64,000 nucleotides of DNA, from NCBI GenBank assembly GCA_905234185.1, contig CAJOGC010000002.1, forward strand, positions 103,949-167,948. The letters are read 5' to 3'. This document shows, piece after piece, positions 1 to 55,578 of this stretch; positions within the stretch are counted from its first letter, which is position 1; every line of letters starts with the position of its first letter. The notes under the pieces are model-generated. The model had not been told where the DNA came from, did not search any database, and saw only the letters and a list, made by a program, of their open reading frames with translations. This DNA comes from an uncultured Alphaproteobacteria bacterium. Its GTDB lineage: Bacteria; Pseudomonadota; Alphaproteobacteria; Rs-D84. Position numbers and translations under genes: made by a program.

Positions 1-1212
1 GTCCAGGGTGGCGATACAAATATGATTGTTTCTGGGAAATCTGGCAATCAATACATATTTTATTTGCGGGCCGAACCGACTAATTCGTCCGAAATCACCT
101 ATTCCCAGGTAGAGATTATAATGGACGGCAACGCAACTTTGCCTGGTGCGATTGGTACGACCCCGGCACCATCTGGCGGAATGTCATCTGTATTTAAGAA
201 GTCCAGATCTGCTTCCAACACAGTTGGTGTTGATGGTGAAGATTTTGGTTGGATAAAATCTATGAAAATCGACCCATCCGAATTCCGGTTTGATTTGGAT
301 ATATTTGTTCCGAACCCGGACGATTATGTAATTGCCCCGGAACGCGTGTGGCATGATCGCATATTCACATATATTGACTTTGGGGACAAAGTTATCGCGA
401 TGACCCAACGTCCGGTTGTTTCATTACTGGTCGAAGGTGGCGAATCCCCGGTCGGGTTCCGTACCGACGGCCAAGATGGACGTTTGCTGATTGTCGAGGC
501 GGTTGGTGACATGGTTTTGCGCAGTGGTCAACGCATCGTTTGCATTAAAAAACGTGAAAAACCGTTCCTTATCGCCGACACGAACAGTGTTATGGCCCTG
601 GCCGAGGCTAATGTCGCACAATCTATGATGTCGGGTCAATCATTAAACAATATGGCTTATGGCTATGATATGGCGGCGATAAACAGCGCGGGCATAAATT
701 ATACCGGAACGCCGGTTATGGTTGGCAATACAGCCAACACTGCAACCACTGGCTATTACATGCCGGCCGGCTTTATCGCAGGCCAGGCTTATCCACAACC
801 AACACAAAATGTTGGCACATCATCTGGCGCGGTGACAATGATGCCGACCGAACGCGTGACCGCTGGTTCGTATTTGCCCCAATCCAATATTCCAATTATT
901 TCCAGCAACCAAAGCGGTGTTGCCGTTGAATTGAAGTCCGATACTTCGGTAAAGGCGTTGGACGATTACTGGGTTGGATTATTAGCAAAATTTAGTGGTG
1001 AAAATGGCCAAGGATTATTAACCCCATACAAAGACAAAGTGTTCTTTGCGGTTGATGAACAAGGTGTAGGCGATTTGGGTTCCGGCGCAACAACGGCACG
1101 TCTGTATCGTTTGCGTATCGGGCCAATGGCTGATATTGATGCGGCACAAAAATTGTGCGACCAATTGTTAAAATTCAGTGGCGCCAGTTGCAATGTCGTC
1201 AGAATACAGTAA
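1..1212 (+). CDS. virB9: VirB9/TrbG-like type IV secretion outer-membrane core protein, 5'-partial (reading frame is open to the window edge), with a C-terminal SPOR-like extension
   Basis: The central segment VWHDRIFTYIDFGDKVIAMTQRPVVSLLVEGGESPVGFRTDGQDGRLLIVEAVGDMVLRSGQRIVCIKKR matches the VirB9 C-terminal beta domain pattern from memory. The last ~80 aa (YWVGLLAKFSG...LYRLRIGPMADIDAAQKLCDQLLKFSGASCNVVRI) look like a SPOR peptidoglycan-binding domain. A virB10-like gene follows immediately. Confidence 0.5.
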   Translation, partial: VQGGDTNMIVSGKSGNQYIFYLRAEPTNSSEITYSQVEIIMDGNATLPGAIGTTPAPSGGMSSVFKKSRSASNTVGVDGEDFGWIKSMKIDPSEFRFDLDIFVPNPDDYVIAPERVWHDRIFTYIDFGDKVIAMTQRPVVSLLVEGGESPVGFRTDGQDGRLLIVEAVGDMVLRSGQRIVCIKKREKPFLIADTNSVMALAEANVAQSMMSGQSLNNMAYGYDMAAINSAGINYTGTPVMVGNTANTATTGYYMPAGFIAGQAYPQPTQNVGTSSGAVTMMPTERVTAGSYLPQSNIPIISSNQSGVAVELKSDTSVKALDDYWVGLLAKFSGENGQGLLTPYKDKVFFAVDEQGVGDLGSGATTARLYRLRIGPMADIDAAQKLCDQLLKFSGASCNVVRIQ

Positions 1213-1221
1213 TTATTTTGG

Positions 1222-3621
1222 GTGCGGATTAATATGAGTAAACTTGGCGAACAATTTTCAGAACTGCGCAAATCAACACCAAAATATGTCCAGTGGTTAT
1301 TGCTGGCCGCGGCACTTGTTATCGTTTTAATTTTGTTGACTTTGCTTATGACGGGGCCAAAAAATAAAACGGCCCGGTCTGCCCAAAAATCTATGGACGA
1401 AACGCCTATCGAAGTTCGTATGATTACGATAAATGCCGACAACCAAGAAGTTTCTGTTGATAAAATCGATTGGGCCAATGTGATTGTCGGTGAGAAAAAG
1501 AGTACCACGATAACAATCAAAACAAATGCACCGACACGCGTATCTATGACCCAGAACAAGAATATTGTTGGGTTTTCTGCACAAACCACATGTACGGATG
1601 CGACCGTTATAAATGCAAAACTATCATGCAATATATATCTTAAATTCGAACCGACAACCGCCATGTCTCCGGAAACAGTGACATTGTCTGTTTATTGGCG
1701 CGCTGAAAACGACCCCGAAACAATGAATAACACGAAAAAGATTTCTGTCGTTTTGGGTGCCACCGCACCGGTCGTGCGACCTGAACCACAACCAATTGTC
1801 GAACCAGAACCGCTGTTTTCCGACGATTATGACGAACTTGACGATTATGATGAATATGATGACAATGTCGAACCACACCCAACAATTCGTGCGGAAATAG
1901 AATCAATTGCGCCGGCGTTGCCGTTCAATTCCGATATCGTGGAACCCGCACCCGTTGTGGAACGACCATCTGAATCTTGTTCTGATTTTGCCTTTCCGGG
2001 GTATGGTCCAAATGGAAATCAAATTGGCTGGATAAAACCCGAACGCGGCGGATATTATTTTCATCCTTTCTCGGACAAAGATTGTAAAAATGCAACGGGA
2101 ATCTATAACCCGGCAACCGGTGTTATTACCGATATCAGCGGCAATGGAACACGTATCGGAACCGATGCCGAACATATTGGGTATGCGGCCATAAATGATG
2201 GCGCATTGCCGGCACTAAATCCGGCCCCGCGTAGCGCAAGAACCGCATCTAATACCACGGTTTCTTCGACCAATGTTCCTATTGCTGGCATGGGCAAGGT
2301 TATTGTAAAGAAGGAACCAGATGTTGAATTTGCCTCCAGCGGCACAGACACCGTCACAAATACAGTTGCTTACGATCGCACCTTTATATTGCGTCAATAC
2401 AAACCTATTCCGGCGACAATCGTTTCCGATGTTCGTGCCGACCCATCGTTATACAAGCAGGGAAATACACTGCCTGTACGGGCGACGGTTGATCGCAATG
2501 TATATTCCGATAATGGACGCACTGTTATTATCCCGGCGGGGACAATGTTGTTGGGGTATCTGACCGGCACCATGCCCGGACCATATACGGCTATTGGTCG
2601 GATGGAGGTTAATTGGTATCAATTTGTTTTACCAAATGGTGTTGAGTTTAATTTCAGTGGTGCCAATGATCCGTTTTCTGGCGATGCCCAGGGGCGTGTC
2701 GGCGTTCCTGGTCGTGGCAGCACCGATTATTTGGAACAATTTGTTATGCCAATGTTAACGGCAATTGTGCCGGCGGCGGTGAATATGATTGCCCCGGTTG
2801 CCGACAAATTCGTTAATCAAATTGATTTGGACAATAATACAGTTGTACAAAGCGGAACAGTGCGATCGTCTGAATTGGCAAAGAACGAGATTATCACCGC
2901 ATGGAACCAAGTTGCCCAGAAATTATTGGTTGATATGATGGATAACACCGTGCCACCATTTACAATTCCGGCGGGGACCCGTATCACTGTTTATTCACCG
3001 GCTGATTTACAAGTCACGTGTGGCGCCCCAGGTACCAGTAATAAAAAGTGTGCCGTTGCTAAATACAGCGACGCAAAACGCCAATTGTGGAAAAATAGTG
3101 CCGAACCAGATTACTATGACGGTTCATGGGTGGGCCAGGCGCGTTCGTTCAATCTGGAACAATATTGCACAACAGACACTAATAATTTAAGGCGCGCATT
3201 ACCATACAGCGATGTTGGGGCTGAATTACAAAAACTTGGTTATTCATACAGCACGCTTGTTGCGTATTGCCAGGCAAGTAATTACCAGGCGATAAATAAT
3301 GCGCGTCAGGATGCCATTTATCAAAACCAACAAAACCCAAACAACAAAAACAGTGTTGCAAACGCCACCGCCCAGGGGACCAAAACATATAATGAACAGG
3401 TTCTTGGATTGAAATACAATGACGATGGTTCTATTAAGAATCCGTATCAGTCGGAAAAGAAACCAGAATCACAACAACCGACTAATGTCATCACATGTGA
3501 TGATGGTTTGGCACCGGACCAATACGGGTGTTGCACGGGTGAAATATACACAGATATGGGCGAACAGGGTTTCAATTGCTGTCCCCAATCTGGTGGCGAT
3601 TGTTTCCCGCCGATTTTGTGA
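1222..3621 (+). CDS. virB10: VirB10/TrbI-family (DotG-like) type IV secretion protein, 799 aa, with a ~230-aa Cys-rich C-terminal extension
   Basis: An N-terminal TM helix is followed by a Pro-rich acidic linker (PEPQPIVEPEP, DDYDELDDYDEYDD). The C-terminal barrel region carries VIIPAGTMLLGY...WYQFVLPNGVEFNFSGANDPFSGDAQGRVGVPGRGSTDYLEQF...IPAGTRITV, which is typical of the VirB10/TrbI signature. The tail has about 7 Cys in its last 45 aa. A GTG start lies at 1222 and an alternative ATG at 1234. Confidence 0.6.
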   Translation: MRINMSKLGEQFSELRKSTPKYVQWLLLAAALVIVLILLTLLMTGPKNKTARSAQKSMDETPIEVRMITINADNQEVSVDKIDWANVIVGEKKSTTITIKTNAPTRVSMTQNKNIVGFSAQTTCTDATVINAKLSCNIYLKFEPTTAMSPETVTLSVYWRAENDPETMNNTKKISVVLGATAPVVRPEPQPIVEPEPLFSDDYDELDDYDEYDDNVEPHPTIRAEIESIAPALPFNSDIVEPAPVVERPSESCSDFAFPGYGPNGNQIGWIKPERGGYYFHPFSDKDCKNATGIYNPATGVITDISGNGTRIGTDAEHIGYAAINDGALPALNPAPRSARTASNTTVSSTNVPIAGMGKVIVKKEPDVEFASSGTDTVTNTVAYDRTFILRQYKPIPATIVSDVRADPSLYKQGNTLPVRATVDRNVYSDNGRTVIIPAGTMLLGYLTGTMPGPYTAIGRMEVNWYQFVLPNGVEFNFSGANDPFSGDAQGRVGVPGRGSTDYLEQFVMPMLTAIVPAAVNMIAPVADKFVNQIDLDNNTVVQSGTVRSSELAKNEIITAWNQVAQKLLVDMMDNTVPPFTIPAGTRITVYSPADLQVTCGAPGTSNKKCAVAKYSDAKRQLWKNSAEPDYYDGSWVGQARSFNLEQYCTTDTNNLRRALPYSDVGAELQKLGYSYSTLVAYCQASNYQAINNARQDAIYQNQQNPNNKNSVANATAQGTKTYNEQVLGLKYNDDGSIKNPYQSEKKPESQQPTNVITCDDGLAPDQYGCCTGEIYTDMGEQGFNCCPQSGGDCFPPIL

Positions 3622-8573: not shown

Positions 8574-9416
8574 TTATACCACACTCTTGGCAATTTTTAC
8601 AAATGTTTCAGGTGTTAATTCCTGGGCTCGTTCGGTTCCCGACAACCCAAATTGCTTCCAATCCATACCCGGCATAATTCCGCGTATCATTTTGCGACGC
8701 TGGCCGAAAAGTTTTGCGGTTATATTTTCTATTTTTGATAAATCGCCAATCTGTTTCATCTTTTCCGCATTCGGAATAATTTGCACAACCGCACTTTCAA
8801 CCTTTGGTCGCGGGACAAAAGCGGTCGACGGCACACCAAACAATATTTTTGCATCCGCAATTAACGATGTTAACACCGACAAGCGACCATATTGCGCGTC
8901 ACCAGGCTTTGCAACAATGCGTTGTGCAACCTCGCGCTGGAACATTAGTGTCATAGAATTTATGATTTCTGATTTATGATTTCTGATTTGTTCATAGGAT
9001 AAGTGCAACCAATTTAATAATAATTCCGTCCCCACATTATATGGCAGGTTCGCGCAAATCGCATATTCCGTCACCCCCAGCGCACCAAAATCTACTTTCA
9101 GCGCATCATCATAAATTACTTCCAAGCGACCATTGGACGCATCAATAACCCGCGACAAAATTGGTGCGGTTGTTTTATCTTTTTCAATCGCAATAACACG
9201 TGGTGCACCCGCCAACAGCAATGCGCGGGTTAACCCCGCGGGGCCTGGTCCAACCTCTATCACTGGAATCTTTTTAATATTCGGCACGCTGCGTGCAATC
9301 CGTCCAGTCAGATTTAAATCAAACAAGAAATTCTGTCCGAATTGCTTTTTCGGTTCCAAACCACATTCGCGCATCATTTCGGATACGGGTGGCAAAGATT
9401 CTATTTTCATCGTCAT
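8574..9416 (-). CDS. rsmA: 16S rRNA (adenine1518/1519-N6)-dimethyltransferase RsmA/KsgA
   Basis: FGQNFLFDLNLTGRIA and VIEVGPGPAGLTRALL SAM-binding motifs. Confidence 0.85.
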   Translation of the reverse strand: MTMKIESLPPVSEMMRECGLEPKKQFGQNFLFDLNLTGRIARSVPNIKKIPVIEVGPGPAGLTRALLLAGAPRVIAIEKDKTTAPILSRVIDASNGRLEVIYDDALKVDFGALGVTEYAICANLPYNVGTELLLNWLHLSYEQIRNHKSEIINSMTLMFQREVAQRIVAKPGDAQYGRLSVLTSLIADAKILFGVPSTAFVPRPKVESAVVQIIPNAEKMKQIGDLSKIENITAKLFGQRRKMIRGIMPGMDWKQFGLSGTERAQELTPETFVKIAKSVV

Positions 9417-10006
9417 AATGGCCGCCGCCCCCCAAATGCCAATGATAACGTTCCGTCATCGATATAGTCTAAATCACCGCCCAACGGCACACCGGATGCC
9501 AATTCGGAAAACCGAACACCACCACCAATCACCGACATAATATAGTGCTGGGTCGTTTTACCCTCTACCGTATTTGGTAATGCAAAAATAATTTCCGTAA
9601 TATTTTCTTTTTTTATACGGTCGGACAAATTTGCAATATTCAAATCGTCCGGCATTGTCCCCGCCGTTCCGGAAATCAGCCCGCCAATAATATGGTACCG
9701 CCCATGAAACACAGATGATTTTTCCAGTGTCCAAACATCGCCCATATCGCGCACGACACACAGCCCGCCATTGGCACGCGACGTGTCACGACAAAATTCA
9801 CACACACCCACACTTTTATCGGTTAAACAGCCACATATATTGCACGGAACAACATTTTCGGTCGCGTCCAGAATAGCCGCCGCCAGGTTTTCCGCCCGCC
9901 CATCACGCGTCTGTAACAATGACAACACAATTCGCACAGCCGCGCGATTTCCCACGCGCGGCAACTTTGCAAATTGTTTGATTAATTTTTCTATTTTTTG
10001 GTTCAT
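9413..10006 (-). CDS. recR: recombination protein RecR
   Basis: C4 zinc finger (CNICGCLTDKSVGVCEFC) and Toprim region (GLCVVRDMGDVWTLE). Overlaps rsmA by 4 nt. Confidence 0.85.
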   Translation of the reverse strand: MNQKIEKLIKQFAKLPRVGNRAAVRIVLSLLQTRDGRAENLAAAILDATENVVPCNICGCLTDKSVGVCEFCRDTSRANGGLCVVRDMGDVWTLEKSSVFHGRYHIIGGLISGTAGTMPDDLNIANLSDRIKKENITEIIFALPNTVEGKTTQHYIMSVIGGGVRFSELASGVPLGGDLDYIDDGTLSLAFGGRRPL

Positions 10007-11278: not shown

Positions 11279-12961
11279 ATGAAACAAAAGTCATACATTA
11301 TTGACGATAAACAACTGATGTCCGAATGGGACTGGGATGCCAATGTTGGTTTAGATCCGAAAACATTAACCCGTGGATCAAATAAAAAGGCATGGTGGGT
11401 ATGTTCGGTATGTGGGCATAAATGGTGTGCCGATATACATCATAGAGCCGTAAGAAAACAAGGTTGTTTAAACTGCCGATATGTATATAAAAAACAACTT
11501 GCTTCTATTTTGTCTGAAACACATCCAAAAGTCCTTAAATACTGGGATTTTTCAAAAAATAAATTGATAACCCCCGAAATTGTCAGCCAGAATTCGCGTA
11601 AAAGCGTTTGGTGGCATTGTCCAGATTGTGGCCATGAATGGGAAGAAAAAATAAAAAATCAGGTTAAAAAATTAGTTTGGTGCCCACATTGTAAGAAGGG
11701 AATTAAAGATTTGGCTTCTGTGGAACCAGAACTTGCAAAAGAATGGCATAAAACAAAAAATACTGATGCCCCAGAACATATTTCGTATGCTTCTAACAAA
11801 TATGCATGGTGGAAATGCCAAAAGTGTGGTTACGAATGGAAAGCCAGAATAGCCAACAGGTCAATATTGAAACGGGGGTGTCCTTGTTGTTCTGGTGGTG
11901 CGGTTGTCGTCGGAATAAACGATTTAAAAACAAAGTTTCCGCATATAGCAAAAGAATGGCACCCTACAAAAAACGGTGAACTTTTACCAGAACAAGTCAC
12001 TTCTGGTACAAGAAAGAAAGTTTGGTGGCAATGCCCACTGGGACACGAATACCAAGCAACGGTAGGACACAGGACATCACAAAATGGCACAGGGTGTCCA
12101 ATATGTTATTCAGGACGTCAAACATCATTCGCTGAACAGGCTGTATTCTTTTATGTAAAACAATTATATCCCGACGCACTAAGCAGGTATAAGGCAGACT
12201 TTTTGGGAAAATTTGAATTGGATATTTATATCCCATCAATCAAATATGCGATAGAATACGATGGTGAAGCATGGCATAAAGCGAATAAATTAGAACGCGA
12301 AAAACGAAAGTATCAATTGTGCAAACAGAACGGCATCACATTACTCAGATTACGAGAAAAGGAACCAGAACATGATGCTGAAGTGGCAGATGATATAATT
12401 TGTGTGAAAAATCTATACGAACACAGAAATCTTGAAATGGTATTAAGACGGTTATTGGTGAAATTGAACCCGCAATCGGTAATGCCTGACAACTTTGTTA
12501 ATTTGGCCAGGGATAATCATAAAATCTTGGAATATAAAAAATCGGCCATATCAGAATCATTGATGTCCGTCAGACCAGATATTGCGATGGAATGGCATCC
12601 AACAAAAAATGGTAACCTGTTACCAAGTATGTTTAAAGCAGGTTCTGAACATAAAGTATGGTGGATTTGTCCAAAGTGTGCCACCGAATATCAAACAAGT
12701 ATTGCTCATAGAACAGATAAAAAGGTTCCAACAGGATGCCCAAAGTGTGGCAAAGAGCGAAGTGACTTAGCGAAAAGTGTCGCTGTAAATATGTTAGATT
12801 TGAAAACGAAAAAAGTATTAAAAACATTCGTTTCTGTATCAGATGCATCAAGGCAAATGAAAATCAATTTATCTAACATATGTATGGCTTGCAAAGGCCA
12901 ACGCAACCAAGCTGGTGGGTACGGTTGGGAATATAATTTAAAAATATGCAAAAGAAAATAA
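11279..12961 (+). CDS. zinc-ribbon-repeat / PD-(D/E)xK (DUF559-like) / NUMOD1 composite protein (homing-endonuclease-like), 560 aa
   Basis: Five WW-x-C-x2-C-x-H-x-W...C-x2-C treble-clef repeats. The central block FELDIYIPSIKYAIEYDGEAWH...GITLLRLRE matches the DUF559/Vsr-like nuclease core. The C-terminal block VSVSDASRQMKINLSNICMACKGQRNQAGGYGWEY matches the NUMOD1 pattern. Confidence 0.6.
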   Translation: MKQKSYIIDDKQLMSEWDWDANVGLDPKTLTRGSNKKAWWVCSVCGHKWCADIHHRAVRKQGCLNCRYVYKKQLASILSETHPKVLKYWDFSKNKLITPEIVSQNSRKSVWWHCPDCGHEWEEKIKNQVKKLVWCPHCKKGIKDLASVEPELAKEWHKTKNTDAPEHISYASNKYAWWKCQKCGYEWKARIANRSILKRGCPCCSGGAVVVGINDLKTKFPHIAKEWHPTKNGELLPEQVTSGTRKKVWWQCPLGHEYQATVGHRTSQNGTGCPICYSGRQTSFAEQAVFFYVKQLYPDALSRYKADFLGKFELDIYIPSIKYAIEYDGEAWHKANKLEREKRKYQLCKQNGITLLRLREKEPEHDAEVADDIICVKNLYEHRNLEMVLRRLLVKLNPQSVMPDNFVNLARDNHKILEYKKSAISESLMSVRPDIAMEWHPTKNGNLLPSMFKAGSEHKVWWICPKCATEYQTSIAHRTDKKVPTGCPKCGKERSDLAKSVAVNMLDLKTKKVLKTFVSVSDASRQMKINLSNICMACKGQRNQAGGYGWEYNLKICKRK

Positions 12962-19364: not shown

Positions 19365-19444
19365 AAGAACACCTTTCCTTATGGACTTTTATCATAGGAA
19401 AAATATCGTTGCGATGCAATCAAATAAAATCCTATACTGGAACT

Positions 19445-21376
19445 ATGAATGAAACATTGGAAAATCAACGGCCTAATCTGTTTTTGTGGGTGCCATTTGT
19501 AATGGCGGCGGGGGCGGCGTTATATTTTTCGTGTTCGCATGAACCGAAACTGCCGTTTTGTTGGTTGTTTGCTATTATTACATTTTGCGCCGCGGCGTTT
19601 TTGCGCACGCCAATCATTATTCGCGGAATATTACTTTTTGTTTTTGGTTTTTGTTATGCGAACGCTTACACAAATATGCTTGATACACCAATTATGCCAC
19701 GCGACATGCACGATATAAGTATTACTGGTCGCATTACGGCAATTGACCATACACCCGACAAAGCCAGAATTTTTATTCGTGTGCCAAACCCAGTCCTTAA
19801 TATAAAAGCGAATGGCGATTCAATTGTTCGTGTTTCTGTTGAACTGGATACTGTTCCGAAACCAGGCGACATAATATCAACAACCGCGACACTGTTCACG
19901 CCAACCCCACCAGACATATATGGCGGGTTCGACTTTGCACGATGGGCATATTTCAACGGAATTACCGCGACGGGATATGCGGACAATATAACAATATCAT
20001 CGAACGGCACAACAAATAATATTCGTGATTGGTTGCACAATAAATCAGATTCCATATTAGTGGACAGTTTAGTACTGGGGTATAAAAACACTTTACCAAA
20101 GGCGGAACGCGCAACTTGGGTGTCCGCCGGTGTCGGACACATTTGGTCAATAAGTGGTTTTCATATGACATTAATCGGTGGTTGGCTGTTTGCGATTTTC
20201 TATTTTATATTTCGTTGCATACCGTCCGTTGTTCGTCGCATACCGGCACGACACATTGCGGCAATATTCGCATGGATTGGCGTTATGATTTATTTATTCG
20301 TATCAGGCATGGGGGTTGCAACAATTCGCGCCTTTTTAATGGCAACGTTATTAATGGTCGCCGCGATTATGGGACGGTCCGCTTTTTCATTACGCAATGT
20401 ATGCTTGGTGTTTTGTTTAATATTTTTGATAAACCCATATTATGTGATGACCGCCGGTTTTCAATTATCGTTTTCCGCAATATTCGGATTGGTATGGTTT
20501 TGGACCGTGGTTAACCCAAAACTGCCTGAAAATAGAATATTGCGCACATTGTGCACCGCTGTTTTGACAGCGACAATCGCATCACTTTTTACTGCACCAT
20601 TTGTCGCATTGCATTTTTATTCGGTACCATTATACAGCATTATTGGCAACCTGGTCTTGTTACCAATATTTTCATTTGTAATAATGCCGCTGGTAATAAT
20701 TGGATCACTGCTTGCATTATTTAATGTTTATTTTCCATTACATATCGCGGATTATGCTTACCATTGGGCGCTGGACATTGCGAATCACATATCACATTTG
20801 CCGTTTGCAACAATGACACCGGCACATGTTTCCAACACTGCAATTTGTTTTATCGTTTTTGGCATGATGTGCATCGTTTTTGTTCGCCCGGTCCGGCTAA
20901 AGATTAATTATATTCTAGGTGCAATTTTTATCTTAATCGGCACAATTATTGTTGCCGCAACCCCACGACCTGTTTTCTTTGCGACACCGGATCACGAACT
21001 GGTTGGTGTTGTACAAAATGGTGAAATATTATTTAACAAATCACGCGCATCAAACCACTATTTTGCATTTGATATATGGAAACATTTAACCAACAGCGAT
21101 ATAAATACACAAAACAATCGTGCAAAACATAATCGCGGATTGTATATCTTTGAAACGCCGAAATATAAAATTGCATATATACAGAAATTCACAGCATTAC
21201 AAAATAACATCGCTAAACTTTGCGACGATGAAAATATAGATTTTATAGTTTCATATCTGGAAATAAATGGCGACCGTTGTGCAAACAAGATTTTGCATGG
21301 TGGTTTTACAATTTATGAAAACGGGAAAATTATTTATGTACCGACATCTCGTCGTTGGAATAATCTGCACCAATAA
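19445..21376 (+). CDS. comEC: ComEC/Rec2-family DNA internalization membrane protein
   Basis: DUF4131-like N-terminal region plus a competence domain (WVSAGVGHIWSISGFHMTLIGG). Polytopic. The start is placed at the ATG at 19445; the track begins at a TTG at 19409. Confidence 0.7.
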   Translation: MNETLENQRPNLFLWVPFVMAAGAALYFSCSHEPKLPFCWLFAIITFCAAAFLRTPIIIRGILLFVFGFCYANAYTNMLDTPIMPRDMHDISITGRITAIDHTPDKARIFIRVPNPVLNIKANGDSIVRVSVELDTVPKPGDIISTTATLFTPTPPDIYGGFDFARWAYFNGITATGYADNITISSNGTTNNIRDWLHNKSDSILVDSLVLGYKNTLPKAERATWVSAGVGHIWSISGFHMTLIGGWLFAIFYFIFRCIPSVVRRIPARHIAAIFAWIGVMIYLFVSGMGVATIRAFLMATLLMVAAIMGRSAFSLRNVCLVFCLIFLINPYYVMTAGFQLSFSAIFGLVWFWTVVNPKLPENRILRTLCTAVLTATIASLFTAPFVALHFYSVPLYSIIGNLVLLPIFSFVIMPLVIIGSLLALFNVYFPLHIADYAYHWALDIANHISHLPFATMTPAHVSNTAICFIVFGMMCIVFVRPVRLKINYILGAIFILIGTIIVAATPRPVFFATPDHELVGVVQNGEILFNKSRASNHYFAFDIWKHLTNSDINTQNNRAKHNRGLYIFETPKYKIAYIQKFTALQNNIAKLCDDENIDFIVSYLEINGDRCANKILHGGFTIYENGKIIYVPTSRRWNNLHQ

Positions 21377-23951: not shown

Positions 23952-23993
23952 TTATAAAACCTCTTATAATGAATGATAGCAAAGGATTACCAA

Positions 23994-24863
23994 ATGACAA
24001 CCTATATTTTAATATTGCTTGGATTAATTGTAATTATGCTGCTTATCCTGCTTTTTCGCCGTCCAACGGTGGATATTTCGGGTCTGCGCGAAGACAATGC
24101 CCGTCTGCGTGAACGCTTGGCGGAACGCCTGGGCGCACTGTCGCAAAACGCAATTGAATTAAAGAACATCAGTGCCGATATCGCGAATTTCAAAAATATA
24201 CTTATGGGCAACAAACAGGCGCGTGGAACATTTGGTGAACGTCAGTTGGCGGATATTGTGACCGACATTATGCCACCAGAAACCTATGATTTTCAGCACG
24301 TTTTGCCAACCGGCGTTCGTCCCGATTGCATTATTCGCCTGCCGTATCCGCCGGGGGATATGATTATTGACAGCAAGTTTCCACTGGAATCATACAACCG
24401 CATGGTCGCGGGCGATGACGGTGCCAAGAAGCAATTTGAATTAGATGTTCGTAAGCATATTGATGCAATTGGCGAAAAATACATTATTTCCGGCACAACT
24501 GCGGAATCGGCGATGATGTTTATTGCATCGGAATCTATATTTGAATCATTGCACCGCGATTTTCCGGCGACGATTGACTATGCCGCGCGTCGTAAAGTAT
24601 TCATTGTTTCGCCATCAACATTATGGGCGACATTGAACACAATTCGTGCGGTATTATCCGACATAAAAATCAAACGCGTTGCCGCCCAGATAAAAAAAGA
24701 ATTGGAATACTTGATTGCTGATCTGGACCGTCTGTCTAAACGCGCGGGGGCAATTGATCAACATTTCGCATCGGCGCAAAAAGACCTTGATGAATTACAA
24801 ACATCTATTGGAAAAATTGCACCGCGCGCCGAAAAGATTCGCGAACTTGATTTCGGGGAATAA
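23994..24863 (+). CDS. rmuC: DNA recombination protein RmuC
   Basis: N-terminal TM, coiled coil and C-terminal RmuC nuclease-like region (PDCIIRLP...DSKFPLE). Start at the ATG with an AAGGA SD. Confidence 0.7.
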   Translation: MTTYILILLGLIVIMLLILLFRRPTVDISGLREDNARLRERLAERLGALSQNAIELKNISADIANFKNILMGNKQARGTFGERQLADIVTDIMPPETYDFQHVLPTGVRPDCIIRLPYPPGDMIIDSKFPLESYNRMVAGDDGAKKQFELDVRKHIDAIGEKYIISGTTAESAMMFIASESIFESLHRDFPATIDYAARRKVFIVSPSTLWATLNTIRAVLSDIKIKRVAAQIKKELEYLIADLDRLSKRAGAIDQHFASAQKDLDELQTSIGKIAPRAEKIRELDFGE

Positions 24864-31371: not shown

Positions 31372-32707
31372 CCAATTTTTTCACGGATTCTGCCGCCATT
31401 AAAATTTGATATTTAGAGTTAAGCAATGCTATATCTAATTGATACAGACCGGACGAAGCTTCGGCTAATTCAATAGCGGATGTTTGACCGGCGATAAAAC
31501 GTTGACGCGAAAAATCGTATGCACGCGCCGCCAAATCACGCGCATTTTGCAATGTTGTCAAATTACTGCGCAAATGGTCATATTGTAAAACAGCAGTATT
31601 ATATTTTTCGGTTGTGATTTTTTTCGACTTGTCTAAATCTTGGCGCACAGCTTCGGCATTCATGGCATCGACCGTGGCGTTTGCCCGATTCAGCCCACCG
31701 GAAAAAATCGGAACCTGTAATGCCAGCCCCCAATACGCCGACTGATTACCCTTTTTATCAAACAATTCACTGCTGGCATTTCCAATACTGGTATAACTGT
31801 ACGATGCGGTGGCCGCCAGTGTCGGCAACGCACCATCGCGTTTAGACCGCGCAGATTTTTCATACATACGAATTTGCTGATTCAGAATGTCCCATTCGGG
31901 GGTATTTGTTAATGGTTTTGCATTTAAATTCGCGAAATCTTTTGGGAATTCCGTGGTAAGATTTATTTCCGCATCCGCATCGATTCCCGCCAAAATTTTA
32001 AGCATACGATACGCCGTATCACGATTGAATTGCGCATTTGACAGTTGTATTTCTTTGGTTGCAATATCAGATTCAATTTTTACCAAGTTTCCACGACTGG
32101 CGCGCCCCGCCGATGCCAAATTACGACGCGCATCACGTGCAGACTTTAAGTCTTGTTCGGAAATTTTCACAATTTCATCGGTCATTTTCGCGGTCCAATA
32201 CAGGTCAACCGCGCTATATTTAACCTCTCGACGGACCAATTCGCGGTTTGTTTCGGACATTTTAACGGCACTGCGAACAGATTCAACCGCGTTACCAATT
32301 TTACCGAATGTATAAATAGGCTGTGTTAATGTTAAACCCGCCATTAAAATATTATCGGGCATTTCAATTTGTGTGACCGGACCTTCTGCCTGCATCAATT
32401 GTCCAACCAACCCGCCCAATTGTGGGGGCAATTGCATATTCATAGAACCACTGAACGGATGCGCAACATCAACAAGGTTCATGTATGTCGCCGACCCCTC
32501 TAATGTAAACCAACGATTGGCATTCGCAGCATCCAACGAAGCCTGGGCTTTCTTAATATTTGCGTCGGCCTTTTTAACATCTTGGGATTCCGCCAAAATT
32601 TTAGCAACCACATCGTCCAACGACAATTCTGTTGCAAGGACCGGCGTTCCGGTCATAGCCAACAATACGGCAAATAAAACATGCGTAAATTTTCGCATTT
32701 TATGCAA
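31364..32707 (-). CDS. TolC-family outer-membrane efflux protein
   Basis: Signal peptide and two coiled-coil repeat halves typical of outer membrane factor (OMF) proteins. Confidence 0.75.
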   Translation of the reverse strand: MHKMRKFTHVLFAVLLAMTGTPVLATELSLDDVVAKILAESQDVKKADANIKKAQASLDAANANRWFTLEGSATYMNLVDVAHPFSGSMNMQLPPQLGGLVGQLMQAEGPVTQIEMPDNILMAGLTLTQPIYTFGKIGNAVESVRSAVKMSETNRELVRREVKYSAVDLYWTAKMTDEIVKISEQDLKSARDARRNLASAGRASRGNLVKIESDIATKEIQLSNAQFNRDTAYRMLKILAGIDADAEINLTTEFPKDFANLNAKPLTNTPEWDILNQQIRMYEKSARSKRDGALPTLAATASYSYTSIGNASSELFDKKGNQSAYWGLALQVPIFSGGLNRANATVDAMNAEAVRQDLDKSKKITTEKYNTAVLQYDHLRSNLTTLQNARDLAARAYDFSRQRFIAGQTSAIELAEASSGLYQLDIALLNSKYQILMAAESVKKLGE

Positions 32708-33143
32708 CCTCCATATTCGATAAAACCTTGTTGATTGTCGTCATGGCATCGGTTAATTTCTTTTCGTCTTCGCGGGAAAGTTTTGCGAAAACCGTGCTGA
32801 TATTATTCTCGAAATCGGCAATCATATTACGCGCAACATCGGCACCAGCGGGGGTGACGCTGTACCAAGTATTGCGGCGATCTTTTGCATCCACCTCGCG
32901 CAGGACCAAACCTTTGGCCTCCAGGTTTTTGAATGTTGCACACAAATTTGGTGTGGTTGTAAATTCGCGATATGCAATATCTTTCAACAGTGCGCGTCCC
33001 CCAAGGTAAAGCCGCACCAAAACACTCATTTGCGAACGCGTATATTCCATATTTTTTATCATTTTGGACTTCATACGGTCCATCAACCGATCCATTATCG
33101 TCATATTTTCTTCGATTAAACGAATAAATTCTTTGCGCGCCAT
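32700..33143 (-). CDS. MarR-family transcriptional regulator
   Basis: Winged-HTH pattern (TRSQMSVLVRLYLGGRALLKDIA...LEAKGLVLREVDAKDRRNTWYSVTPAG). The start is adjusted to the ATG at 33143 (track start TTG at 33308). Confidence 0.7.
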   Translation of the reverse strand: MARKEFIRLIEENMTIMDRLMDRMKSKMIKNMEYTRSQMSVLVRLYLGGRALLKDIAYREFTTTPNLCATFKNLEAKGLVLREVDAKDRRNTWYSVTPAGADVARNMIADFENNISTVFAKLSREDEKKLTDAMTTINKVLSNMEVA

Positions 33144-33274
33144 TTTATCCCCCTTTTTATCAAAAAACACCGGTAAATGATTTAAATCGCCAATCATTAT
33201 ATGTTTTAACAAAATTATTTCAAGCCCTATTTTTGAAAAAATTCGCATTTTTTGAGCCGGACGGAAAAATATTA

Positions 33275-33302
33275 TTGCAAAACGAACAAAGAATATTATA
33301 AT
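33275..33302 (+). promoter_or_regulatory. consensus sigma-70 promoter (TTGCAA-16-TATAAT) upstream of the tRNA-Gln unit
   Basis: ttgcaa at 33275-33280, tataat at 33297-33302. The predicted TSS lies a few nt before the duplicated tRNA 5' fragment at 33315. Confidence 0.55.
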
Positions 33303-33314
33303 TTGCAATACCTT

Positions 33315-33400
33315 TGGGGTGTCGTTCCGTTTCCTCGGCTAACGCCTCGCCCGGAATGACAACGACTATGTCATGTGGATATAGTTCGTTCCAAGTTCAC
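33315..33400 (+). mobile_element. miniature insertion element at the tRNA-Gln 5' end: 11-nt copy of tRNA nt 1-11 (tggggtgtcgt) plus a ~75-bp insert
   Basis: The insert tccgtttcctcggctaacgcctcgcccggaatgacaacgac... is homologous to the insert upstream of tRNA-Glu. It is followed by the intact tRNA. Confidence 0.6.
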
Positions 33401-33474
33401 TGGGGTGTCGTCTAATGGTAGGACAAGAGATTTTGGTTCTCTTTATCATGGTTCGAATCCGTGCGCCCCAACCA
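33401..33474 (+). tRNA. tRNA-Gln (anticodon TTG)
   Basis: Cloverleaf: acceptor TGGGGTG/CGCCCCA, anticodon loop TTTTGGT, T-loop TTCGAAT, encoded CCA. Confidence 0.85.
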
Positions 33475-33638
33475 AAAATTCAACCGGCATTTTTGCCGGT
33501 TTAATTTTTGATCGCGCACGGATCGGTCAGAGTGCCAACGGCACGCATGACCAATACGAGAATACACAATTAGAAAAATCTTAAAAAATCGACGGATGGA
33601 GATTTTTTTGATTTTGATTATTGCGTATCGAGGCAGCG

Positions 33639-33656
33639 GCGCCCCAACCAAAAATT
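33639..33656 (+). repeat. 18-bp direct repeat of the tRNA-Gln 3' end (gcgccccaaccaaaaatt; first copy 33463-33480)
   Basis: The match is exact. Each copy is followed by a hairpin terminator (33481-33510 and 33657-33684). This is an att-like footprint. Confidence 0.55.
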
Positions 33657-34329: not shown

Positions 34330-34358
34330 TTGCAACCAGTAATAATTATGTCTAGAAT
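34330..34358 (+). promoter_or_regulatory. sigma-70 promoter (TTGCAA-17-TAGAAT) upstream of the tRNA-Glu unit
   Basis: ttgcaa at 34330-34335, tagaat at 34353-34358, about 10 nt before the first duplicated tRNA 5' fragment. Confidence 0.5.
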
Positions 34359-34368
34359 ATTGCCACAC

Positions 34369-34498
34369 GGTCCCATCGTTCCGTTCCCTCGCTCCGCTCG
34401 CCCGGAATGACAACGACGACGGGACGATAGACGGTCCCATCGTTCCGTTCCCTCGCTCCGCTCGCCCGGAATGACAACGACGACGGGACGACATAGAC
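34369..34498 (+). mobile_element. two tandem copies of (11-nt tRNA-Glu 5' fragment ggtcccatcgt plus ~54-bp insert) immediately upstream of tRNA-Glu
   Basis: Copies at 34369-34432 and 34433-34498 differ by a 2-nt indel. The insert tccgttccctcgctccgctcgcccggaatgacaacgacgacgggacga contains the palindrome tcgcccg...cgggacga. Confidence 0.65.
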
Positions 34499-34573
34499 GG
34501 TCCCATCGTCTAGCGGTTAGGACATCGGATTCTCATTCCGGTAACATGGGTTCGATTCCCATTGGGACTGCCA
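34499..34573 (+). tRNA. tRNA-Glu (anticodon CTC)
   Basis: Cloverleaf: acceptor GGTCCCA/TGGGACT, D-loop AGCGGTTA, anticodon loop TTCTCAT, T-loop TTCGATT, encoded CCA. Architecture resembles E. coli tRNA-Glu. Confidence 0.85.
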
Positions 34574-54217: not shown

Positions 54218-55504
54218 TTATTTTTTTATAACTTTCCAGAGTTTCTGCAGGTTTGCCCACGTCACTTCCAGGTTCTTTTTTGTCGTCTGATAGAATTTAT
54301 CCGATATTTTTACATTGAACAATGTTTCGATAAGTGCGGGAATAGATGTCATAAACATAGCGATAAATATCCCCATAAGGATGATTGTCACAATGCTGTC
54401 ATTACGCATCATCAATCCATCCATAAGAATTGTCGAATCGTTCTGTGCAAGTGCCGTCACTAATGCATTCGCCCCGCCCCAATCACCAAACATCGCGTCC
54501 AAGAACATTATTGCAAATGTCACAAATATACCAGTCAATGCCAGTCCCAATGTCCCCTTGACCACATCATCGATAATCGATTCGATATTTTTTCCACCAC
54601 CCGGCAATATTTTCCACCCATTAAATATCCATGCCAATAAGTTTAATGGCAACATTATCAAATCCAGTGATAAATTTATGAATATTTCCAAGAAAAAGAT
54701 GGGTATCGGCAATAATGCCGCAAAAAACAAAACCAGTATTAGTAATCCGCTAAAAAATATTAATACATTCGGGAAAATCGGAATATCCAGAATAATTTTG
54801 TGCATATACTTTTCATTAAATGCCATATTCAGCATCGTCCATCCCACCGCCATCCCAAGCCCGGTCATTTGATGAACAACCCCTAATTCACATGCCAGAT
54901 TATGACGCAACTTTGGTGAAAATGCCCCGCGCGACGCCGCATCCACAGACACAGATGCCGGATCCGCAATTGCGGTCGCAATGATACAATTATTAAATTC
55001 ATCATCGCCAACAACGATATGATTCATTGACATGCCTACATTAAATATCGGTTCTATTGCTATATCATTTATCATTCGTGGCAATGGCGCGACCAATAGC
55101 CCACAAACAACCGCTAATTTTATAACACGCACGCCAAAATCACCGGACAATGACCATGGTTCAATATTTTTTGCATTCATATAATTTGAAAGTAATTGCC
55201 ACGCAAACCAAATTGCCAAAAATGCCGCTGCAAACGGGATAATTACCGCACCAATCGCACTGTACACCCCCGGCAAAATATCAGACATCGTTCCAATTAC
55301 ATCCGAAAACATCTGGCACGACCAACATGTCGAAAAGAAATTAAGCGCGTCACTCATGTTAACCGGAACGGCCGTACGGTATATTGCAAACCCGGCTAAA
55401 ACGCCAACCCCTGCGATTGCGCCGACGACCCATGGTGCCACCGCCCCCGCCGCAAATGGCAAGAACGATAAAAACACTATCCAAAACTTTCTAAACCTAT
55501 TCAT
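54218..55504 (-). CDS. polytopic membrane protein, paralog A of the five-gene membrane-protein cluster (VirB6/TrbL-like, tentative)
   Basis: Signal-like N-terminus and multiple TM helices. Shared paralog motif LPLNLLAWIFNGW. Transcribed divergently from paralogs B-E. Confidence 0.45.
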   Translation of the reverse strand: MNRFRKFWIVFLSFLPFAAGAVAPWVVGAIAGVGVLAGFAIYRTAVPVNMSDALNFFSTCWSCQMFSDVIGTMSDILPGVYSAIGAVIIPFAAAFLAIWFAWQLLSNYMNAKNIEPWSLSGDFGVRVIKLAVVCGLLVAPLPRMINDIAIEPIFNVGMSMNHIVVGDDEFNNCIIATAIADPASVSVDAASRGAFSPKLRHNLACELGVVHQMTGLGMAVGWTMLNMAFNEKYMHKIILDIPIFPNVLIFFSGLLILVLFFAALLPIPIFFLEIFINLSLDLIMLPLNLLAWIFNGWKILPGGGKNIESIIDDVVKGTLGLALTGIFVTFAIMFLDAMFGDWGGANALVTALAQNDSTILMDGLMMRNDSIVTIILMGIFIAMFMTSIPALIETLFNVKISDKFYQTTKKNLEVTWANLQKLWKVIKK

Positions 55505-55516
55505 ATCATAATAAGT

Positions 55517-55544
55517 ATATCACATTTTGTCCCAAATGTGATAT
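55517..55544. promoter_or_regulatory. perfect 11-bp inverted repeat ATATCACATTT-N6-AAATGTGATAT in the divergent promoter region, overlapping a TATAAT -10 element
   Basis: Centered in the 74-bp intergenic region between paralog A (-) and paralogs B-E (+). The TATAAT hexamer lies at 55542-55547. Confidence 0.55.
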
Positions 55545-55578
55545 AATTGAAAAGATAAAAATGTAAACACGAGAGAGA

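Follow-up and report, generated by a model that had tools for sequence, protein, structure and literature searches.

A cassette with antisense tRNA-Glu patches between promoter and gene at tRNA-Gln and tRNA-Glu of Candidatus Enterousia, possibly a templated insertion

Results

Layout of the two tRNA loci

We analyzed a 64,000-nucleotide (nt) stretch of contig CAJOGC010000002.1 from an uncultured alphaproteobacterium of the order Rs-D84 (referred to throughout as the window), which holds only two transfer RNA (tRNA) genes, tRNA-Gln(ttg) at 33401-33474 and tRNA-Glu(ctc) at 34499-34573, with a flavodoxin-like gene between them. At both genes the promoter adjoins a partial copy of the tRNA, not the intact tRNA, and a short GC-rich cassette lies between this copy and the gene. 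For comparison, 32 related loci (L001, L002, and so on) were retrieved with a sequence pattern or by way of homologues of the flavodoxin-like gene. The features of the two loci are as follows.

33275-33302, + strand: sigma-70-like promoter of tRNA-Gln, TTGCAA-16-TATAAT; it directly precedes the tRNA in the empty-site loci L004, L012, L017, L022, L028, and L031
33315-33325, + strand: TGGGGTGTCGT, a copy of the first 11 nt of tRNA-Gln displaced from the gene; it lies by the promoter and is both the ancestral 5' end and the left direct repeat
33326-33366, + strand: conserved cassette core, 41 nt, GC-rich, TCCGTTTCCTCGGCTAACGCCTCGCCCGGAATGACAACGAC; homologous to the tRNA-Glu units
33367-33400, + strand: Gln-specific tail, 34 nt, AT-richer; it contains an AT-rich hairpin, ACTATGTC..GATATAGT, and what is now the proximal leader
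33401-33474, + strand: intact tRNA-Gln(UUG), 57.7 bits; its nt 1-11 at 33401-33411 are the right direct repeat
34330-34358, + strand: promoter of tRNA-Glu, TTGCAA-17-TAGAAT; kept in empty-site relatives
34369-34432, + strand: Glu unit 1, 64 nt, made up of the tRNA-Glu nt 1-11 copy GGTCCCATCGT (34369-34379), a 38-nt core (34380-34417), a degraded antisense arm ACGACGGGAC (34416-34425), and the spacer GATAGAC
34433-34498, + strand: Glu unit 2, 66 nt, the same as unit 1 apart from its spacer, GACATAGAC
34499-34573, + strand: intact tRNA-Glu(CUC), 61.7 bits

At tRNA-Gln, TGGGGTGTCGT is found twice, at 33315-33325 and 33401-33411, and the promoter adjoins the displaced fragment at a distance of 12 nt while an intact tRNA-Gln follows the insert, both as the original prediction had described. 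The tRNA-Glu promoter ends 10 nt upstream of the first Glu fragment copy. Measured between the direct repeats, the insert is 53-75 nt long, or 64-86 nt per unit with the 11-nt copy. The Gln core is predicted to pair with the preceding TGTCGT as a hairpin (UGUCGUUCCG/CGGAAUGACA). A promoter-like match at 33356-33385 (ATGACA-18-TATAGT, 10/12) straddles the conserved core and the Gln tail, with its -10-like TATAGT inside the tail; it would initiate ~8 nt upstream of tRNA-Gln, has a weaker -10 in L007 (TATGGT), and is without an equivalent in the Glu units.

The cassettes are intergenic, and the adjacent minus-strand genes begin at ~33143 and ~34261. The mechanical 202-amino-acid (aa) open reading frame (ORF) of a MarR-family gene on the minus strand (32700-33308) over-extends upstream through the tRNA-Gln promoter; in identical contigs this gene is called as 147 aa with a start near 33143, and therefore no gene is overlapped by the cassette. 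Two independent public assemblies from different samples (L005 and L006) have a tRNA-Glu array identical base for base to that of the window, so that it is not an assembly artifact; the tRNA-Gln insert is also present in L005 (L006 stops inside tRNA-Gln), and the cassette occurs in five further loci from other studies.

Homology of the tRNA-Gln and tRNA-Glu inserts

The original prediction, that one and the same miniature element had been inserted into the two tRNA genes, held up as far as homology is concerned: the Gln core and the Glu unit insert reach a local alignment score of 51, compared with a mean of 12.7 and a maximum of 31 for dinucleotide shuffles (0/2000 reach 51), and the 21-mer CTCGCCCGGAATGACAACGAC is identical in all three window copies, where no chance matches are expected. 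Chance resemblance or an assembly artifact, in favor of which we could count nothing, is therefore improbable in the extreme. Also borne out were the identical position in the two tRNAs (after nt 11, with nt 1-11 duplicated) and the common sequence TCGTCTA at the junction, which occupies nt 8-14 in both. The notion of a miniature element has to be narrowed, as the inserts have in common the left junction (TCGT followed by TCCG) and 41 nt in all, with homology ending at ...ACGAC, and the unrelated right ends argue against a two-ended transposon. For the 34-nt Gln tail, no counterpart was found at tRNA-Glu, elsewhere in the window, or in the fetched loci. Similarly, insertion at nt 11 is indistinguishable from an 11-nt copy plus cassette placed directly before +1. 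The argument for site-specific targeting retains the coincidence of position in two tRNAs, but microhomology at TCGT combined with selection for an intact tRNA can also explain this, and no mobilizing enzyme was found among the 50 window ORFs scanned.

Empty and filled alleles among relatives

At tRNA-Glu, L008, L012, L017, L020, L022, L023, L028, L031, and L032 have zero units, and their -10 hexamer, ~10-nt leader, and tRNA are contiguous; L001, L004, and L007 (the last a close relative of the window) have one unit, and the window, L003, and L002 have two. Only the window and, among the fetched loci, the 96%-identical L007 have a filled tRNA-Gln; the site is empty in L004, L012, L017, L022, L028, and L031. 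L003, with two units, and L031, with none, have an identical 47-nt promoter/leader, and L012 and L022 are likewise empty behind the same promoter/leader that is filled in L007 and the window. The alternative of a generic leader present upstream of every tRNA, which the original prediction had raised against itself, thus fails, and these are genuine insertions. Empty alleles have a leader that matches what precedes the first partial copy in the filled ones; the promoter-proximal copy is therefore the ancestral 5' end, to which the cassette and a fresh nt 1-11 were added.

Lineages were compared through the flavodoxin, MerR, and GyrA C-terminus markers, by single-gene neighbor joining or identity only. 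On all three markers filled lineages are interspersed with empty ones: L022, L008, L020, and L028, all empty, are nearer to the window than L003 and L001, which are filled. Nucleotide identity between L003 and the window is 70% in the flavodoxin gene, 80% in the promoter region, and 45% in the downstream spacer, against 98.5% (130/132) in the 132-nt unit array, and the closest relative of L003 is empty. In L001, the most distant genome (47% aa identity in the GyrA C-terminus), the 38-nt core is identical, but the antisense arm and spacer differ. Judging from these sequence comparisons, a patchy distribution of this kind is not explicable by vertical inheritance with neutral drift, and would call for horizontal transfer, strong constraint, or both.

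tRNA-derived patches, folding, and conservation of the cassette

In L002 and L004 the unit ends with ACGATGGGAC, which reverse-complements tRNA nt 2-11 without a mismatch, and so carries a perfect 10-bp inverted repeat (GTCCCATCGT/ACGATGGGAC) of which the left arm is the duplicated target; the Gln copy is without such a repeat. Antisense patches of tRNA-Glu recur in the units: GACGATGGGAC is the 11-nt reverse complement of nt 2-12, reaching the genuine C12, and CCGGAATGA is the reverse complement of nt 35-43 (longest-match shuffle p = 0.004-0.03 per variant). Extended to CCGGAATGA(C)AA, the latter agrees at 11/12 positions with the anticodon loop and 3' stem of tRNA-Glu, read as the reverse complement (shuffle p ~0.005-0.01). 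Because both sense and antisense patches derive from tRNA-Glu, we take this gene to be the home of the cassette and the Gln copy to be secondary. The Gln core is closer to the L002/L004 variant (CCTCGGC-loop-GCCTCG) than to the window's own Glu variant. The similarity of the forward-strand core to tRNA-Glu falls within the shuffle range, and a degenerate pseudo-tRNA was rejected as an explanation.

The promoter-proximal unit of L002 (~1853-1917, minus strand) has a nested 30-nt insertion between CGGA repeats, in which 11 nt of the tRNA-Gln promoter/leader (-13 to -3) recur in antisense as TTCGCTATGCT (p = 0.0005, calculated post hoc). The patch includes one base of the -10 hexamer and was probably copied from DNA, not from a transcript; it suggests sequence exchange between the 5' regions of the two tRNA genes. 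As the -10 hexamer base lies upstream of the likely start site, a retro (cDNA) origin of the cassette is disfavored.

The best-preserved forms are predicted to fold strongly, with -28.8 kcal/mol (z = -4.98) for the L004 unit and z = -3.5 for L002 unit 2, and the Gln leader (z = -2.97) is predicted to form two hairpins closed by a short stem. In the predicted folds of both genes, every base of the decoy 5' copy pairs within the leader, through different partner sequences. The Glu units of the window do not exceed shuffled sequence in stability (z ~ -1.1), and the outer stem formed with the antisense arm has decayed without compensation, by an A.C mismatch in the window and a C.A mismatch in L001. 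No base pair of the cassette shows any covariation. Seven of eight distinct units, drawn from at least five lineages, have an invariant 21-nt right block, CTCGCCCGGAATGACAACGAC; in the eighth, L002 unit 1, it is split by the nested insertion. The 12-nt left block has one variable site, and the tip loop (ACA/GTA/TAAC) and spacers vary freely. This pattern, read from aligned sequences, argues for a sequence-specific constraint on the invariant block, which may be a protein recognition site or serve an RNA function. The direct repeat never covers less than tRNA nt 1-11 and appears to be 11 nt long in Gln, L001, and L007, 13 nt in the window and L003, 14 nt in L004, and 15 nt in L002, although the extra 2-4 nt could be chance. 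Between promoter and tRNA there is no terminator-like site on the + strand.

Searches for further copies, known families, and enzymes

The original prediction called for a search for further copies, which turned up other filled loci in relatives, at tRNA-Glu and tRNA-Gln only. The window holds three copies, all at the two tRNAs, and each visible genome segment holds 1-3; nhmmer found no further copy of the core in the 64-kb window or in ~130 kb of related loci. Collections were scanned with exact patterns, which diverged copies would escape: the genome scan gave one hit and metagenomes gave three, all of them at tRNA-Glu, and viral contigs gave no match. BLAST with the Gln leader gave no match in plasmid and phage collections. 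The single exact match to CTCGCCCGGAATGACAACGAC among GTDB species genomes is a metagenome-assembled genome of Candidatus Enterousia, a genus of gut bacteria in the alphaproteobacterial order Rs-D84 with genomes mostly below 1 Mb (PMC12306168).

A Pfam scan of 50 window ORFs detected no transposase, integrase, or reverse transcriptase. In Rfam 15 no family covers the cassette at the gathering threshold, where only the two tRNAs pass, and at E<=10 the segments 33315-33400 and 34367-34498 gave only weak chance hairpin matches, to a microRNA model on the opposite strand. A glutamine or other riboswitch was set aside, given no Rfam match, as was a tRNA intron (group I or archaeal bulge-helix-bulge), as a complete tRNA follows each insert (57.7 and 61.7 bits) and no intron family matches at E<=10. 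The possible leader peptide ATG ACA ACG ACG ACG (Met-Thr4) has no ribosome-binding site, its frame is not conserved between variants, and it was likewise rejected. In the literature we found nothing relevant on palindromic elements or MITEs (miniature inverted-repeat transposable elements) within tRNA genes.

Inserts on the 3' side and other observations on the tRNA genes

A second, different family of small inserts lies on the 3' side of tRNA-Gln in the window, L007, and L012 and of tRNA-Glu in L001, L012, and L023. In the window, a 176-bp segment after tRNA-Gln (33475-33650) is flanked by 12-nt direct repeats of the tRNA 3' end, GCGCCCCAACCA, at 33463-33474 and 33639-33650, each followed by its own terminator, and holds an antisense T-stem/acceptor fragment, GCGCACGGAT, at 33514-33523. 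The inserts after tRNA-Glu are ~163-176 bp long, with flanking 19-nt repeats ATTCCCGTTGGGACTGCCA (nt 57-75) and a palindrome of T-arm fragments inside. These 3' inserts resemble either small att-type remnants or a mirror-image counterpart of the 5' cassette. L008 contains an orphan Gln 3' fragment, and tRNA-Gln was not found in that locus. In L022 an ORF for a 79-aa stand-alone GIY-YIG nuclease domain (2462-2701) adjoins the 3' end of the empty-site tRNA-Glu. The tRNA-Glu gene itself has a compensatory T-stem change between the window and L001/L003/L008 (ACATGGG...CCCATT versus ACACGGG...CCCGTT), and in L017, L023, and L032 its G2-C71 pair is swapped to C2-G71 (GCTCCC...GGGAGT).

Other genes of the window

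Housekeeping genes in the window include gyrA, an RND efflux operon, murein genes, and the genes for ComEC, RmuC, and RecR. The genes for the ComEC competence channel (19409-21376), RmuC (23973-24863), RecR (9413-10006), and type IV secretion components (CagX/TrbI-like; 22-3621) are relevant to DNA uptake and recombination and are unlinked to the cassette. Five consecutive large ORFs (403-478 aa) at 54218-60765 have no Pfam match, and 11279-12961 encodes a 560-aa protein with five DUF4379 treble-clef zinc-finger repeats and DUF2726.

Discussion

Origin and spread of the cassette

The cassette is real and is unusual in position and composition; it is low-copy and is confined to one uncultured genus. 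Our preferred reading, to which we tentatively assign a probability of about 0.45, is that it is a tRNA-derived templated insertion, copied at TCGT microhomology, lost through deletion between repeats, passed on by recombination, and transcribed along with the tRNA as the leader of its precursor. It would have originated at tRNA-Glu(CUC) by local template switching in replication or repair, giving a unit composed of the sense nt 1-11 copy, the GC-rich core, the antisense nt 35-43 and nt 2-12 patches, and a short spacer, whose hairpin would sequester the decoy 5' copy. The copy number could then change, or the cassette be removed precisely, when the 11-nt (or 64-nt) direct repeats slip or recombine, and co-resident Enterousia lineages could exchange it by homologous recombination in the promoter and tRNA flanks, which are conserved; DNA uptake is possible, since ComEC is present. 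In the window lineage the donor of the 41-nt core would have been the tRNA-Glu leader, at a distance of 1.1 kb, with ectopic copying into tRNA-Gln at the shared TCGT (nt 8-11). Templated insertion fits the features best: a patch from a nearby donor joined at microhomology, antisense patches of local sequence, a nested indel between short repeats, and zero, one, or two units at tRNA-Glu. The combination of a shared left junction with unrelated right ends is that of a templated patch and not of a two-ended transposon, and the apparently variable length of the direct repeat (11-15 nt) would be better accounted for by a selection filter than by a fixed stagger. We propose that only products with a complete tRNA survive and that the duplication therefore always spans at least nt 1-11.

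Since the cassette stands between promoter and tRNA with no terminator-like site on the + strand, we infer that it is transcribed as a leader, expected to be 85-130 nt long, which RNase P would cut off. The 3' strand of the tRNA could be contested by the decoy acceptor 5' strand, and the internal hairpins would block this pairing during transcription. In minimum-free-energy folds of the full precursor the promoter-proximal decoy copy can pair with the tRNA 3' strand; in such models this is the thermodynamic ambiguity expected of identical sequences and is silent on co-transcriptional folding.

Several points weigh against templated insertion. The 21-nt block is invariant across at least five lineages in which the adjacent spacers all differ, and neutral templated junk should not be so conserved. 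The same geometry in two genes is also the expected product of a site-specific enzyme, the return junction at Gln +1 comes without microhomology that would explain it, and no source of the 34-nt Gln tail was found in the window or the fetched loci. Transfer by homologous recombination is assumed, and ancestral presence with many precise losses may account for part of the pattern.

Some of these points would be met by a non-autonomous, site-specific mobile element, which we consider possible if rather unlikely. An enzyme acting in trans would recognize the Glx tRNA D-arm at TCGT/CTA and make a staggered cut, giving a target duplication of ~11 bp; the invariant 21-nt block would be its binding site, and arrays would arise by repeated insertion into the regenerated target. 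An enzyme-driven element best explains the invariant block together with the identical geometry, that is, one insertion point and an 11-nt duplication in two tRNA genes, and it sits well with the clean empty sites, with the patchy distribution of near-identical units in distant genomes, with the perfect 10-bp inverted repeat of L002 and L004, and with the promoter-proximal unit of L002, older in this model, being the more rearranged. A two-ended transposon is nevertheless disfavored because the Gln and Glu copies have unrelated right ends, the inverted repeat has the duplicated target as its left arm (the Gln copy having no such repeat), the apparent duplication varies from 11 to 15 nt, and only 1-3 copies are seen, at tRNA-Glu and tRNA-Gln alone, across the 64-kb window, ~130 kb of related loci, and the one GTDB species genome with the 21-mer; moreover, the 50 window ORFs scanned include no transposase, integrase, or reverse transcriptase, and plasmid, phage, and viral-contig searches gave no match. 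In its fullest form the enzyme-driven reading would make the cassette a tRNA-derived, self-restoring hairpin, a hitherto undescribed kind of bacterial mobile DNA resembling a short interspersed nuclear element (SINE) that homes to the Glx tRNA D-arm junction TCGT/CTA (nt 11/12), lets the gene survive by duplicating its 5' 11 nt, and has spread horizontally between species. This is a tentative idea at best, and the same tentativeness extends to its two candidate roles for CTCGCCCGGAATGACAACGAC taken together, as the recognition site of an enzyme or as a functional RNA module within the leader of the pre-tRNA.

A functional cis-acting leader RNA, which is compatible with either origin model, would be kept by selection as a processing or stability module or as a decoy hairpin mimicking the tRNA-Glu acceptor stem. 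The near-invariance of the 21-nt and 12-nt blocks beside variable spacers and tip loop, the strong folds of the best-preserved forms (L004 z = -4.98, L002 unit 2 z = -3.5, Gln leader z = -2.97), the burial of the decoy 5' copy in both genes by different partners, and the location between promoter and tRNA with no + strand terminator-like site all speak for it; we nonetheless find it doubtful, as the cassette is missing in most related lineages, sister genomes included, the outer stem has decayed uncompensated in the window and L001, the window Glu units are at z ~ -1.1, and there is neither covariation nor an Rfam match at E<=10. Far less probable still is a remnant of integrase-mediated integration, namely, attL and attR left after deletion of an element that used the 5' part of a tRNA. 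A direct repeat of a tRNA segment does flank the insert, the arrangement ACGATGGGAC, a 6-10 nt spacer, and GTCCCATCGT resembles a recombinase core site, and the same genomes hold the separate ~165-176-bp inserts between tRNA 3'-end repeats that are like classical att remnants. However, integrases that target tRNA genes are known to duplicate the 3' part, whereas here it is the 5' part, where a kilobase insert would sever the tRNA from its promoter. The inverted arms are also unevenly spaced (6, 7, 8, or 10 nt), the Gln copy would require a Gln-specific arm, the window ORFs scanned include no integrase, and independent deletions are unlikely to leave the same ~40-nt interior at two sites.

Significance

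Mobile DNA usually targets the 3' ends of tRNA genes, where the gene can be restored without losing its promoter. This cassette is found 5' of the gene, which it separates from the promoter, in two tRNAs, and duplication of exactly the first 11 bases keeps the tRNA intact. If it is enzyme-driven, it would represent a new targeting logic and a rare bacterial tRNA-derived mobile sequence; if it stems from replication errors and recombination, it would be a natural example of templated patchwork insertions arising, persisting, and moving between species in genomes of <1 Mb, and would also show pre-tRNA leaders acquiring structured decoy hairpins. Either way, the invariant block points to a function that is open to test.

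Comparison with known systems

Like MITEs, Correia-NEMIS, and Rickettsia palindromic elements, the cassette is short, non-coding, and hairpin-forming, is flanked by target repeats, and is polymorphic for presence and absence; like small palindromic elements, it is tolerated inside transcribed RNA-gene regions with function kept. Unlike MITEs, it has a very low copy number, occurs in two tRNA genes only, differs in its right ends, has an interior of antisense pieces of its target tRNA, and has no known partner transposase; of the hallmarks of MITEs it thus has the short non-coding sequence but neither element-borne terminal inverted repeats nor, in the sequences scanned, dispersed copies with a related autonomous insertion sequence. 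The IS200/IS605-derived PATE/REP elements insert without duplicating their target, on the 3' side of a fixed motif of four or five nucleotides, and have subterminal hairpins at both ends and usually many copies. The cassette also follows a tetranucleotide, TCGT, but with an 11-nt duplication, differing right ends, and minimal copy number it does not belong with them. With the islands and prophages that tyrosine integrases insert into tRNA genes it shares the tRNA target, a duplicated tRNA segment, and the restored tRNA; unlike them, it duplicates the 5' nt 1-11, measures 53-75 bp with no integrase or coding capacity, and lies between promoter and gene. As in eukaryotic tRNA-derived SINEs, a short, mobile-looking sequence has a tRNA-derived body, but SINEs are retroposed by the machinery of long interspersed nuclear elements and are dispersed and high-copy, whereas the cassette is undispersed and one of its patches suggests an origin at the DNA level.

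Its resemblance to templated insertions, quasi-palindrome template switches, and homology-facilitated illegitimate recombination lies in the microhomology junctions (TCGT, CGGA) and in nearby sense and antisense patches, and, like template-switch products, it forms hairpins flanked by short duplications and undergoes frequent indels and copy-number change. In keeping with this class, the Gln core is the Glu-leader core joined at TCGT, and patches come from tRNA-Glu and, in L002, from the tRNA-Gln leader. Template-switch events are normally unique and neutral; the cassette, by contrast, combines an invariant 21-nt block with presence in several lineages and at the homologous site of a second tRNA.

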